DNA of 64,000 bases from Promethearchaeota archaeon. Lineage in GTDB: Archaea; Asgardarchaeota; Lokiarchaeia; Sigyniarchaeales; SOKP01. This document shows, in pieces, positions 6,719 to 28,093 of the stretch (position 1 is its first letter; each line of letters begins with the position of its first letter). A program made the translations under genes and the position numbers. The notes under the pieces are model-generated. The model was not told where the DNA came from. It was given only the letters and a program-made list of their open reading frames with translations, and did not search any database. The stretch spans positions 160,001-224,000 of the forward strand of contig JBHLOY010000002.1 of the NCBI GenBank assembly GCA_048939995.1, read 5' to 3'.

Positions 6719-7927
6719 TTATTTTTGATAGCTATTCCACTTTTCCTCAAGGTTAGGATCTTGAATGGTCTCCATAATATATTTAGCATAATCTTCTCCA
6801 GTAGCACCAGTATCTCTACCTGTAACCTTTAGTTTCTTTTCATAGATTGCACATATATCTAAAGCCATTTCCAGTTTCTTAGCTTTTCCTACGAATCCAA
6901 TATGGTTTAGAAGCATCGCAGCAGCTTTTATAATGCTCGTTGGGTCAGCATATTTGGTTCTTCCAGTTTCAACCATTCGCGGAGCAGTACCATGAATAGC
7001 CTCAAACATAGCATAACGTTTTCCGATATTTGCACTACCCGCTGTACCAACAGAGCCCTGAATCTGAGCTGCTTCGTCCGTAATTATATCTCCATATAGA
7101 TTGGGAGCAACAATTACCTTAAAATCTTTTTGACGTTCAGGATCTATTAATTTAGCAGCCATAATATCAATATACCAGTCATCAAATTTGATTTCAGGAT
7201 ATTCTTCTTTTGCAAGTTGTTTAGCCATATTTAGATACATTCCATCAGTAGTTTTTACTACATTTGCTTTTGTTACTAATGAAACTCTATTTACTCCCGT
7301 CTTTTTAGCATGTTCAAATGCCAATCTCAAAATACGATCGGTACCTTGCAATGTATGCACACAGAAATCAAAAGCTAGATCATTTGTCACCTTAATTCCC
7401 TTTGAACCTAGAACATAAGCACCTTCAGTGTTCTCTCTGAAAAACATCCAGTCAATTCCTTTATCAGGTACCTTTACTGGGCGCACATTAGCAAATAAAT
7501 CAAGTTCTCTTCGCATAGATACATTAGCACTCTCTAAGTTTGGCCATTTGCCAGAAGCTAAGTCCGCTGAGGAAGGTGTGTGCGTGGGCCCTTTGAGTAT
7601 TACATTACAACCCTTCAATTGCTCTAAGGCTTCATCAGGTATGGCTTTCATTACTTTTGCCCTATTCTCAATAGTTAATCCTTCAATATCTTTGAATAGA
7701 ACCTTTCCACTCTGAACCTCATCTTCTAAAAGAAACTTCAGAATTGCTTCAGCATGTTTTGTAATCTCTGGCCCTATACCATCTCCACCTGCTACTCCAA
7801 TAATAATTGGTTTTAGTGTTGAGTAATCAATCCAATCTGCCCCTTTTTTCATTTCTTCAATTCGTTTTAATTGTGCTTTAACTAATGTTTCAAAGTGTTC
7901 TTTTGCTTTTTCAATAACATTTTCCAT
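6719..7927 (-). CDS. icd: isocitrate dehydrogenase (isocitrate/isopropylmalate dehydrogenase family)
   Basis: GDGIGPEI, LKGP, the isocitrate-type SANVSMRR segment, RENTEG, PNLYGDIITD and FEAIHGTAP; lies downstream of aclA. Confidence 0.8.
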   Translation of the reverse strand: MENVIEKAKEHFETLVKAQLKRIEEMKKGADWIDYSTLKPIIIGVAGGDGIGPEITKHAEAILKFLLEDEVQSGKVLFKDIEGLTIENRAKVMKAIPDEALEQLKGCNVILKGPTHTPSSADLASGKWPNLESANVSMRRELDLFANVRPVKVPDKGIDWMFFRENTEGAYVLGSKGIKVTNDLAFDFCVHTLQGTDRILRLAFEHAKKTGVNRVSLVTKANVVKTTDGMYLNMAKQLAKEEYPEIKFDDWYIDIMAAKLIDPERQKDFKVIVAPNLYGDIITDEAAQIQGSVGTAGSANIGKRYAMFEAIHGTAPRMVETGRTKYADPTSIIKAAAMLLNHIGFVGKAKKLEMALDICAIYEKKLKVTGRDTGATGEDYAKYIMETIQDPNLEEKWNSYQK

Positions 7928-8053
7928 TTTATAATTCCTCTATTTTTTTCAATTTTATTGACTTTTTTTTTTAATTTTTAGCATTTCTTAAAATTTATTA
8001 TTTTTATAAACTGAAAAAAGATTTAATTTAAAAGATAGTGTTTAATACCAGAT

Positions 8054-26085: not shown

Positions 26086-26164
26086 ATAAAATTTTATTTT
26101 ACCTATAATTCTCACTTCATCCAATTGGTAGAATTAAAAAAATAAAGATAAAAATATTTCTTAT

Positions 26165-28093
26165 TTATTTAGCATGTCTTTGTTTTATTAAGGTTAACTT
26201 TCCACCAGCTTTTAATTCTTCTAAATCAGTTTTACTGAGTGAATGAATTAATTCGGTTTCAAAACCCTTTGTTAAGTTCTTTAATCTTACTTTACCAGTA
26301 TCTAGTGTAGTTAAATCAATTTCGAATTTATCTCCTTGTTCCATCTTATTATAATCATCCTTATTTACAAAAGTTAAAGGTACAATCCCAAAATTTACAA
26401 GATTTGCTAAATGGATACGAGCAAACGATTTTACAATCACTGCTTTAACCCCTAAATACTTAGGGGCAATTGCAGCGTGTTCACGACTAGATCCTTGGCC
26501 ATAATTCTCCCCAGCAATAACAAAACCTCCATTCTTTTGTTTGGCTCTCTCTGGAAAGGATTGGTCAACTAATTTAAACACAAATTTGCTTATTTCAGGA
26601 ATATTACTACGTAAGGGAAGTATCTGAGCCCCTGCTGGCATAATATGATCAGTTGTGATGTCATCCTCGACTTTTAAGAGAACTTCACCTTCCAATATAT
26701 CTGGGATGGGATTAAATTCTGGCAAAGGTTTTATATTTGGACCACGTATAATCTCAACACCCTCTGCCTTTTCTGGGGGTAACGGAGCTATTATCATATT
26801 ATCATTTACTAAAAATTTTTCTGGCATCTCAATCATAGGCATCGTTCCAAATTTTCGAGGATCAGTGACTTGACCTTCAATCGCAGCCATCGCAGCTACT
26901 TCTGGACTTACAAGATATACATTAGCACTTTTTGTACCTGATCTTCCTAAAAAATTTCTATTGAATGTTCTTAATGAAACAGCGTCACTTTTCGGTGCTA
27001 GTCCCATACCAATACAAGGTCCACATGTATTCTCAAGAATTCTAGCCCCGGCTTCAACAAAATATGCCATTTCTCCAGAATGAATTAAATGATCGACGAC
27101 TTGTCGTGATCCTGGAGACACAGTAAGGCTTATATTTTGATGAACAGTCTTACCTTTTAACATATTTGCGGCAACTTTAAGATCTCGTAAGGAACTATTT
27201 GTACAAGATCCAATACAAACTTGATCTACTTTTAAGCCTTCAATTTGTTTGATTGATTTAACATTTCCGGGGCTATGAGGCTCTGCTACAAGGGGTTCAA
27301 GCGTACTTAAATCAATTTCAATTCTCTCATCATAAATTGCATCTACATCGGCTTCTAGGGGAATCCACTGGTCCCCTCTTTCCTGGGCTTCAAGGAATTC
27401 TTTAGTAATATCATCAGAAGGAAAAATTGAAGTGGTTGCGCCTGTTTCAGTTCCCATATTAGTGATTGTTCCCCTTTCTGGAACTGATAAAGTCTTTACT
27501 CCTGGTCCTGAATATTCCAACACTTTATTTACTCCTCCTTTTACCCCAATTCTCCGTAAAACTTCTAAGATAACATCCTTGGCGGACACAAAATCAGAAA
27601 GTTTTCCAGTTAAATGGACATTAACAATTATTGGTAGTTTTAAGTTAAACGGCTCTCCTGCCATTGCAGCTGCAACATCTAAACCACCCGCTCCGATAGC
27701 AATCATTCCTACCCCACCTCCAGTTGGAGTATGGCTATCCGAGCCCAATAATGTTTTACCAGGACGAGCAAATCGTTCAAGGTGAACTTGATGGCATATT
27801 CCATTTCCAGGACGCGATAAATAGATCCCATATTTTGCTGCTATGCTTTGTAGATATCGATGGTCATCAGGATTTTTATAATCCTCTTGAAGGGTGTTGT
27901 GGTCGATATAACTTACAGAAAGCTCAGTTTGAACCCGTGGAATACCCATTGCCTCAAATTGAAGATAAGCCATCGTTCCTGTAGCATCTTGCGTAAGGGT
28001 TTGGTCAATTTTGATTGATATATCTGTTCCTTTTTCTAAGATCCCTTCTACTAAATGTTGTTCTAAAATCTTTTCTGTTAGGGTTTTTCCCAT
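26165..28093 (-). CDS. acn: aconitate hydratase (single-chain ~640-aa anaerobe/Aquifex type)
   Basis: QDATGTMA, DHN, GICHQVHLE, GSDSHT, Fe-S ligands IGSCTN and CGPCIG, RTFNRNF, GQGSSREHA; probable ATG at 28093 (track starts at TTG 28102). Confidence 0.9.
   Translation of the reverse strand: MGKTLTEKILEQHLVEGILEKGTDISIKIDQTLTQDATGTMAYLQFEAMGIPRVQTELSVSYIDHNTLQEDYKNPDDHRYLQSIAAKYGIYLSRPGNGICHQVHLERFARPGKTLLGSDSHTPTGGGVGMIAIGAGGLDVAAAMAGEPFNLKLPIIVNVHLTGKLSDFVSAKDVILEVLRRIGVKGGVNKVLEYSGPGVKTLSVPERGTITNMGTETGATTSIFPSDDITKEFLEAQERGDQWIPLEADVDAIYDERIEIDLSTLEPLVAEPHSPGNVKSIKQIEGLKVDQVCIGSCTNSSLRDLKVAANMLKGKTVHQNISLTVSPGSRQVVDHLIHSGEMAYFVEAGARILENTCGPCIGMGLAPKSDAVSLRTFNRNFLGRSGTKSANVYLVSPEVAAMAAIEGQVTDPRKFGTMPMIEMPEKFLVNDNMIIAPLPPEKAEGVEIIRGPNIKPLPEFNPIPDILEGEVLLKVEDDITTDHIMPAGAQILPLRSNIPEISKFVFKLVDQSFPERAKQKNGGFVIAGENYGQGSSREHAAIAPKYLGVKAVIVKSFARIHLANLVNFGIVPLTFVNKDDYNKMEQGDKFEIDLTTLDTGKVRLKNLTKGFETELIHSLSKTDLEELKAGGKLTLIKQRHAK

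Follow-up and report, generated by a model that had tools for sequence, protein, structure and literature searches.

A tricarboxylic acid cycle supercluster with ATP-citrate lyase and a remnant of citrate synthase in a Lokiarchaeon

In which direction would a tricarboxylic acid (TCA) cycle run when its genes include those for ATP-citrate lyase (ACL) and citrate synthase survives only as a fragment? The question is raised by a gene cluster of a Promethearchaeota archaeon, located at positions 6719-28102 of the 64,000-nt stretch of DNA that was analysed (hereafter, the window; G000:C17:160001-224000), which belongs to a genome of 3.75 Mb in 38 contigs with a completeness of 98.3 % and a contamination of 5.3 %. 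The initial annotation of the window proposed either a reductive TCA (rTCA) module or an oxidative cycle with ACL acting as a citrate synthase; both directions stay in play, but neither of the two is the reading that we favour. We give even odds (a probability of about 0.5) to a third one, in which the cluster is the inherited TCA supercluster of Lokiarchaeia, minus citrate synthase and AcnA through one deletion, and its products would form a reversible, amphibolic and branched network in an anaerobic heterotroph or mixotroph, not a pathway dedicated to CO2 fixation.

Gene content and organization of the cluster

Genes were identified from the open reading frame (ORF) listing together with Pfam and NCBIfam scans, which found all the cluster genes claimed in the initial annotation in their places and intact (Table 1). 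The minus strand contains, in order of transcription, sucC, sucD, a gene for an S-adenosylmethionine (SAM)-dependent methyltransferase, aclB, aclA and an icd-like gene, whereas the plus strand contains, from position 14227, korA, korB, sdhA, sdhB, fumC and a gene of the FMN_dh family, with an aconitase gene situated ca. 4 kb beyond this second operon. The 12 enzyme genes are full length, uninterrupted by stops and alignable with their orthologues from one end to the other, and the pairs aclB/aclA, korA/korB and sdhA/sdhB each overlap by one base, as expected for co-translated subunit genes. The predicted products of the two divergent operons show a set of soluble enzymes linking acetyl-CoA plus oxaloacetate, citrate, isocitrate, 2-oxoglutarate, succinyl-CoA, succinate, fumarate and malate, in which the citrate node is now served, as judged from the genes, only by ACL and a short aconitase.

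The closest solved relatives of this ACL are ACLY-A/B from Methanothrix soehngenii/concilii (PDB 6hxi, 6znw), which, unlike the enzyme described here, are not part of a full TCA cluster. AclA aligned along its full length with Methanothrix ACLY-B (6hxi, 782 bits) and with human ACLY (728 bits), being closer to both than to AclA from Chlorobium (435 bits). The phospho-His loop GHAGA is conserved, in a segment (lqfGHAGAmag) that aligns to the same loop in 6hxi, and so is the catalytic Asp of the citryl-CoA lyase (lnvDgcig), which is replaced by Ala in entry 6znw.

Other assignments are less direct. The icd-like gene is the sole Iso_dh gene in the genome and scored below the cut-off for every NCBIfam equivalog, its top PDB matches being NAD-type isocitrate dehydrogenases (ICDH; 176 bits). 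The best PDB matches of KorA are the 2-oxoacid:ferredoxin oxidoreductase (OFOR) from S. tokodaii and the 2-oxoglutarate:ferredoxin oxidoreductase (OGOR) from M. marinus. Because the nearest solved relatives of KorAB thus include broad-range Sulfolobus enzymes besides the Magnetococcus 2-oxoglutarate enzyme, 2-oxoglutarate is put forward as its substrate from its position in the cluster. FumC scored 581 bits with the fumC_II model, below the cut-off of 665, and 517 bits with the aspartase subfamily model (cut-off 510); an identification as aspartase was set aside because fumarases outscore aspartase in PDB (445 vs. 390 bits), although some room is left for the latter. Outside the window there is an SdhA paralogue (G000:C17:35551-37071; ca. 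36 % identity, ca. 530 aa) that nearly all the searched relatives have, even where the TCA cluster is lacking, and for which L-aspartate oxidase and a thiol:fumarate-reductase-like enzyme are possible identities. The SAM-dependent methyltransferase gene does not occur at the equivalent position in the relatives G010, G046 and G042, and is probably a passenger inserted in the minus-strand operon. The divergent sucC/korA junction is likewise present in G046 and G042, and presumably holds the promoters of both operons.

The closest homologues of AclB (72-88 % identity) are in metagenome-assembled genomes (MAGs) titled Promethearchaeota or Promethearchaeia (equivalent to Lokiarchaeia), including Loki_b31, ABR01-11, and cold-seep and trench MAGs, which supports the assignment of the DNA to Asgard archaea made from the letters alone. 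The initial annotation had also considered that a chimeric contig might undo its conclusions. The contig is not chimeric, and no sign of it was seen, because the GC content is even across the window (0.29-0.37) and synteny with G010, a relative from the same genus, extends to the flanks on either side of the cluster.

Remnants of citrate synthase and AcnA

Only 95 bp after the stop codon of the FMN_dh gene there is a fragment of 26 residues (22009-22086) that is 85 % identical, by tblastn, to residues 49-74 of the citrate synthase from G008, of the same genus. Abutting on it in another frame, nucleotides 22088-22153 match residues 871-892 of AcnA from G008 (893 residues in all) with 77 % identity and end at the native stop. 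DNA identity to the intact citrate synthase gene of G018 is high across the remnant block and is lost on both sides. In G008, the corresponding row of genes comprises fumC, the FMN-dependent dehydrogenase gene, a citrate synthase gene, one for a transporter of the major facilitator superfamily (MFS), another citrate synthase gene and one for an AcnA-type aconitase. Since the two remnants abut, the sequences indicate that one deletion of ca. 3.6 kb fused the citrate synthase gene, at codon 74, with acnA, at codon 871, removing both genes; the first ca. 48 codons of citrate synthase are gone too, given the short distance preceding the fragment.

The 31-codon open frame containing the remnant (21994-22089) is the only Citrate_synt match in the genome besides the C-terminal domain of AclA. 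No intact citrate synthase was found in the genome, at its 98.3 % completeness, so the idea that this enzyme persists only as a scar holds both for the window and genome-wide. The scar is a new detail with respect to published reconstructions. We dropped the possibility that it is common to close relatives: the same deletion junction was not found in five close congeners searched with the scar region, which returned the intact citrate synthase gene of G010 and two short AT-rich chance matches, where tblastn detected neither citrate synthase nor AcnA.

As a separate observation, the ACL-bearing Lokiarchaeon G040 contains only two short Citrate_synt pieces (G040:C264:1672-2548; model positions 1-84 and 327-357, ca. 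540 bp apart), which may represent a second, independent decay of citrate synthase. Aconitases are also diverse. Besides the 22-codon AcnA remnant, acn is the only aconitase gene in the window; a second short-type paralogue, 51-52 % identical to it, is found directly beside citrate synthase in G010 (G010:C30:1629-4886) and in G023 (G023:C48). Counting AcnA and the two short forms, as many as three types of aconitase thus occur in the genus.

An FMN-dependent dehydrogenase in the malate dehydrogenase position

The initial annotation noted that a canonical malate dehydrogenase (MDH) step was lacking, and this was confirmed genome-wide, since no canonical NAD-dependent MDH of the Ldh_1 family was found. 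The sole Ldh_1-family protein was considered as the missing MDH and rejected: it scored above the cut-off of the L-lactate dehydrogenase model (366 vs. 304 bits) but under that of the MDH model (267 vs. 283 bits), and the site that tells the two enzymes apart is occupied by Gln, so that it is an L-lactate dehydrogenase. Two Ldh_2/COG2055 genes are located on another contig.

In the operon, the malate/oxaloacetate position is held by the FMN_dh gene, as judged from its context, which also suggests its substrate. Of the 21 congeners with a match to the gene, 20 have it directly 3′ of fumC (the remaining match lies at the end of its contig), and it precedes citrate synthase wherever the cluster retains the latter (G002, G008, G018, G024, G046 and G059). 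Flavin-type 2-hydroxyacid dehydrogenases normally oxidise their substrates. Only residues ca. 193-350 of the product align to the alpha-hydroxyacid oxidases in PDB (lactate and glycolate oxidases). Residues 1 to ca. 190, the region where glycolate oxidase has the Tyr/Arg ligands of the substrate carboxylate, did not align to any PDB member. Among 15 orthologues, from three families, the catalytic motif SNHGGR (247-252) and the FMN-contacting residue K225 are invariant, and so are five cysteines, C22, C28, C36, C117 and C338. An AlphaFold2 model based on these 15 orthologues (mean pLDDT 76) has a confident barrel, with values under 50 for residues 17-75, which include the Cys motif, and gives no evidence on a metal cluster. 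These features make the protein a candidate Fe-S/FMN malate:acceptor oxidoreductase. Together with the five invariant cysteines, the conserved linkage of fumC to this dehydrogenase gene, and to citrate synthase where present, is a new detail of the Lokiarchaeia cluster.

Complementary functions elsewhere in the genome

The initial annotation had pointed to gltA, mdh/mqo, sdhCD, and the genes for pyruvate:ferredoxin oxidoreductase and for carbon monoxide dehydrogenase/acetyl-CoA synthase (CODH/ACS), as the functions whose presence elsewhere would matter, and we searched the whole genome for them. In addition to the absence of intact citrate synthase and NAD-dependent MDH described above, no Mqo and no SdhC/D membrane anchor (Sdh_cyt) were found. 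CODH/ACS of the Wood-Ljungdahl pathway is present (CdhC), as are five further OFOR alpha genes. Malic enzyme and the PYC_OADA domain (pyruvate carboxylase B subunit) were not found in the genome, nor was the archaeal-type phosphoenolpyruvate (PEP) carboxylase, PEPcase_2, the bacterial model PF00311 not having been searched separately; GTP-dependent PEP carboxykinase (PEPCK) is the only C3-C4 link found. A canonical oxidative TCA cycle is not encoded, with citrate synthase being a 26-residue remnant and without an MDH of the Ldh_1 family.

Conservation of the cluster in Lokiarchaeia

The clustering, which the initial annotation called unusual for archaea, is not special to this genome. A synteny comparison with related genomes identified the divergent supercluster in two other families of the class, in some cases with intact citrate synthase and AcnA. 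In G046, from a sister family, the layout is complete (icd-aclA-aclB-sucD-sucC on one side and korAB-sdhAB-x-fumC-FMNdh-CS-AcnA on the other, CS being citrate synthase); in G042 it is the same without citrate synthase, and G059, from a third family, has korA / FMNdh-CS-AcnA. For every shared cluster gene, similarity is higher within the genus than between families, a crude test of descent and not a reconciliation; this pattern fits vertical descent with repeated loss, the sequences giving no hint of a recent block transfer.

Within the genus, the genes are unevenly distributed among the 36 other species: ACL is present in 30 and icd, always adjoining aclA, in 23, while the full-length fumC-FMNdh pair occurs in 18, an SdhA orthologue (at least 69 % identity) in 10, citrate synthase in eight and the cluster-type KorA in only six. 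In three closed genomes of a sister family (G044, G050 and G055), aclA, aclB and acn are contiguous, with the acn orthologue directly adjoining aclB, and in G044 icd is contiguous too; the other cluster genes are not within ca. 20 kb. Across the order, we examined 131 genomes with a completeness of at least 80 %, of which 65 have ACL only, 16 citrate synthase only, 20 both and 30 neither. ACL without citrate synthase is thus the commonest state in the order (65/131), and ACL is a stable core, with citrate synthase, KorAB and SdhAB being optional. In the first 24 relatives from outside the genus, ACL and citrate synthase had seemed to be mutually exclusive, but this complementarity was dropped because the 20 genomes with both, among the 131, compare with ca. 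23 expected by chance.

Neither is the system undescribed, as had been claimed. A complete TCA gene set with ICDH, OGOR and ACL was reported in Lokiarchaeia and read as rTCA by Bulzu et al. (2018; bioRxiv 10.1101/385732), with sdhCD missing and MDH only as COG2055, and rTCA was also drawn into the Lokiarchaeota model of Farag et al. (10.1101/763623). The occurrence of ACL across Asgard phyla is reported in a 2022 preprint (10.1101/2022.10.25.513756) and by Santana-Molina et al. (2025; PMC11976288). The main text of the paper on the isolation of MK-D1, a cultured relative (Imachi et al., 2020; PMC7015854), does not mention citrate, ACL, 2-oxoglutarate or the rTCA cycle. The genome analysed here shares the enzyme set of Bulzu et al., including the missing sdhCD and the presence of COG2055 (Ldh_2), and differs from these reconstructions in its visible deletion scar. 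The TCA passages of Bulzu et al. and Farag et al. give the gene content and the rTCA reading, with no mention there of the divergent supercluster, of the flavin dehydrogenase in the MDH slot or of the variable CS-AcnA module.

Direction of the pathway

In the reversible network that we favour, ACL, Acn and Icd would connect acetyl-CoA plus oxaloacetate with 2-oxoglutarate. One arm would run from citrate through 2-oxoglutarate and succinyl-CoA to succinate, KorAB making reduced ferredoxin and SucCD making ATP from the 2-oxoglutarate arm; the other would lead from oxaloacetate or malate to fumarate and succinate, with the anchorless SdhAB working as a fumarate reductase in soluble form and thereby as an electron sink. 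For ACL itself, formation of citrate, which conserves ATP, appears slightly more likely than its cleavage, a direction that is not readable from DNA.

Five observations argue against a dedicated autotrophic rTCA cycle: the presence of CODH/ACS, with which a second route for CO2 fixation would be redundant; the lack of any PEP or pyruvate carboxylase found; the retention of ACL-icd in relatives unable to close the cycle; the flavin dehydrogenase; and the plus-strand operon, whose genes stand in the order of the oxidative reactions and whose ancestral form had CS-AcnA at its end. Since ACL-icd is kept in most relatives without korAB and sdhAB, ACL is weak evidence for autotrophy. The Lokiarchaeia grown in culture are syntrophs that degrade amino acids, which also speaks against the rTCA reading. 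Succinate oxidation without a membrane anchor or a high-potential acceptor is thermodynamically unfavourable, and a complete oxidative cycle is disfavoured because the searches returned no anchor and this step has no known acceptor. With these points standing against both dedicated directions, we favour the reversible, branched network.

Several points weigh against it. The direction of the network is one that we infer from sequence. The families of all three classical marker enzymes of rTCA are present, and the sole citrate enzyme left after the loss of citrate synthase is one that usually cleaves citrate. A simple replacement of citrate synthase by ACL has no statistical support, because the two are not complementary in the order (both in 20 genomes vs. 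23 expected). The substrates assigned to KorAB, to the FMN-dependent dehydrogenase and to the icd-like enzyme come from context, and the role of SdhAB as fumarate reductase is putative.

A more specific proposal, which we regard as possible but rather unlikely, is that ACL is the working citrate synthase: the Cys-rich, possibly Fe-S, FMN dehydrogenase would oxidise malate to a non-NAD acceptor, raising oxaloacetate, which ACL would condense with acetyl-CoA with a gain of ATP.

The published alternative, a reductive (Arnon-Buchanan) TCA cycle, we consider possible though unlikely. ACL would cleave citrate, KorAB carboxylate succinyl-CoA and SdhAB reduce fumarate, fixing CO2 or supplying acetyl-CoA and oxaloacetate. 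Proposed for Lokiarchaeia in two preprints (10.1101/385732 and 10.1101/763623), it agrees with the clustered presence of ACL, a ferredoxin-dependent OFOR and an anchorless Sdh/Frd, and with the lack of citrate synthase in the genome; further OFOR paralogues could serve as pyruvate synthase, and PEPCK could carboxylate PEP. The initial annotation relied on these marker enzymes, and all three families are indeed there, but the marker logic is weak, since ACL-icd is kept in 23-30 of the 36 congeners vs. only six for KorA and 10 for SdhA, and CODH/ACS offers an alternative CO2 route. An anaplerotic carboxylase is also wanting, as PEPcase_2 and pyruvate carboxylase were not found (PF00311 was not searched separately), the ancestral operon had citrate synthase and AcnA in oxidative order beside a flavin-type 2-hydroxyacid dehydrogenase, and the main text of the MK-D1 paper (PMC7015854) is silent on citrate, 2-oxoglutarate and rTCA. 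The ACL-type rTCA of Chlorobium/Chlorobaculum (AclBA; PDB 6hxj) shares with our cluster a two-subunit ACL and, by prediction, a ferredoxin-dependent OGOR, ICDH and fumarate reductase; in contrast to it, the genome studied here has genes of the Wood-Ljungdahl pathway, and the searches for PEP and pyruvate carboxylases found none in it.

Improbable in our view is a complete oxidative cycle of the Desulfobacter type, with ACL reversed as an ATP-conserving citrate synthase and the FMN/Cys-rich dehydrogenase oxidising malate to a non-NAD acceptor, so that acetyl-CoA from acyl-CoA or amino acid catabolism would be converted to CO2. Desulfobacter postgatei uses ACL for citrate synthesis, membrane-bound, menaquinone-linked and NAD-independent succinate and malate dehydrogenases, and sulfate respiration; its modified oxidative citric acid cycle was reportedly described by Moller, Schauder, Fuchs and Thauer in 1987. 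The likeness extends to ACL in place of citrate synthase, the putative ferredoxin-linked OGOR and a candidate for NAD-independent malate oxidation. ACL is the only citrate-forming candidate in the genome, the candidate non-NAD dehydrogenase in the MDH slot is conserved beside fumC and was ancestrally beside citrate synthase, the operon has the oxidative gene order and there are beta-oxidation genes in the window. Unlike Desulfobacter, however, the genome (98 % complete) yielded neither SdhC/D (Sdh_cyt) nor Mqo, and hence no membrane-bound, quinone-linked dehydrogenase; no terminal electron acceptor system turned up, without a systematic search for dsr, nar or other reductases having been made, and oxidising succinate to the level of H2 or formate is strongly endergonic without reverse electron transport.

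Finally, a decaying relic, unused since the loss of citrate synthase and AcnA and heading for the loss seen in congeners without korAB and sdhAB, is very improbable: the patchiness of the cluster genes across the genus and a sucC without canonical start codon would agree with it, but the 12 enzyme genes are all full length, without internal stops and alignable end to end, and the sucC start is common to congeners with intact clusters.

The start codon of sucC

The sucC frame is open from position 14034 and contains no ATG, GTG or TTG before residue 59 of the family model. At the position aligned with the Met/Val start (ATG/GTG) of family-f2 orthologues there is ATA in our genome (G000), G008 and G010, and ATC in G034; in G008 and G034, the sequence GGAGG is situated 7 nt upstream. 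These codons look like a near-cognate start conserved in the genus, at which the translation of succinyl-CoA synthetase may be controlled. As the ATA/ATC start is kept in congeners, we ruled out that sucC is a pseudogene, and its conservation is a new detail relative to the known TCA set of Lokiarchaeia.

Feature coordinates and neighbouring genes

Table 1. Features of the TCA cluster, in window coordinates
Feature	Position	Strand	Evidence or comment
icd, divergent isocitrate-dehydrogenase-family enzyme, final gene of the minus-strand operon	6719-7927	-	Pfam Iso_dh, 231 bits
aclA, ATP-citrate lyase large subunit (CoA-binding, phospho-His and citryl-CoA lyase domains)	8054-9889	-	Pfam Ligase_CoA + Citrate_synt C-terminal half
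aclB, ATP-citrate lyase small subunit (ATP-grasp and citrate-binding domains)	9889-11178	-	Pfam Citrate_bind, 255 bits; Citrate_synth_N, 230 bits (cut-off 83)
SAM-dependent methyltransferase, between aclB and sucD	11412-12020	-	Pfam Methyltransf_11
sucD, succinyl-CoA synthetase alpha subunit	12043-12903	-	NCBIfam PRK05678, 382 bits (cut-off 336)
sucC, succinyl-CoA synthetase beta subunit	12907-14028	-	probable ATA start, 14028-14026
Divergent sucC/korA intergenic region	14029-14226		gene layout
korA, 2-oxoacid:ferredoxin oxidoreductase alpha subunit, gamma and alpha domains fused	14227-15960	+	TIGR03710, 594 bits (cut-off 483)
korB, OFOR beta subunit, thiamine pyrophosphate (TPP)-binding	15960-16817	+	TIGR02177, 345 bits (cut-off 262); PRK11869, 434.6 bits (cut-off 438)
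sdhA/frdA, succinate dehydrogenase/fumarate reductase flavoprotein	16842-18554	+	TIGR01812, 740 bits (cut-off 567)
sdhB/frdB, iron-sulfur subunit, without CCG extension	18554-19315	+	TIGR00384, 199 bits (cut-off 88)
fumC, class II fumarase	19458-20843	+	Lyase_1 + FumaraseC_C
FMN-dependent 2-hydroxyacid-dehydrogenase-family protein, Cys-rich N-terminus	20861-21913	+	Pfam FMN_dh (PF01070), 219 bits
Citrate synthase remnant, residues ca. 49-74	22009-22086	+	PF00285, 30.6 bits
AcnA-type aconitase remnant, last 22 codons + stop	22088-22156	+	other frame, abuts the citrate synthase remnant
acn, short-type aconitate hydratase, 645 aa	26165-28102	-	NCBIfam PRK07229, 987 bits (cut-off 612)

The cluster region is flanked by genes for an enoyl-CoA hydratase (3466-4287) and a 3-hydroxyacyl-CoA dehydrogenase (39268-40440), and an MFS_2 transporter gene (5176-6567) is convergent with icd. 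Carboxylate-type permeases occur inside the cluster in relatives, as in G008, where an MFS gene separates the two genes for citrate synthase. Just past the aconitase gene (28348-31315) there is a 163-aa ORF without family match, followed by two adjacent genes of the HGD-D family (2-hydroxyacyl-CoA dehydratase component D type), which may belong to amino acid or 2-hydroxyacid fermentation. Further away, the segment 46242-52064 encodes a 4Fe-4S protein and, divergently from it, a protein of 493 aa (Oxidored_q6) that resembles the small subunit of NiFe-hydrogenases; next on the plus strand are an FAD_binding_4 (GlcD-like) gene and a gene with a double CCG domain. A lactate/glycolate-type dehydrogenase with an Hdr-like electron module is a possible identity for these genes.

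Implications

The TCA genes of Lokiarchaeia would thus be an ancient supercluster, passed on vertically, in which the CS-AcnA module varies, and not a new system. Because ACL is a stable core while citrate synthase, KorAB and SdhAB come and go, its presence is unfit as a marker of rTCA or autotrophy in genomes of Lokiarchaeia. Among the unknowns of the cluster, the one most open to testing is the conserved flavin dehydrogenase that occupies the MDH slot. ACL is one of the few central-carbon enzymes common to eukaryotes and Asgard archaea, and the metabolism of the latter informs models of eukaryote origins. The genome described here is a natural knock-out of citrate synthase within an otherwise complete cluster and therewith a good test organism for the direction of ACL. 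If ACL were the working citrate synthase, this Asgard archaeon would have a cycle, oxidative or branched, that conserves ATP, and its CS-AcnA deletion would demonstrate, as a natural knock-out, that the cell can do without citrate synthase.

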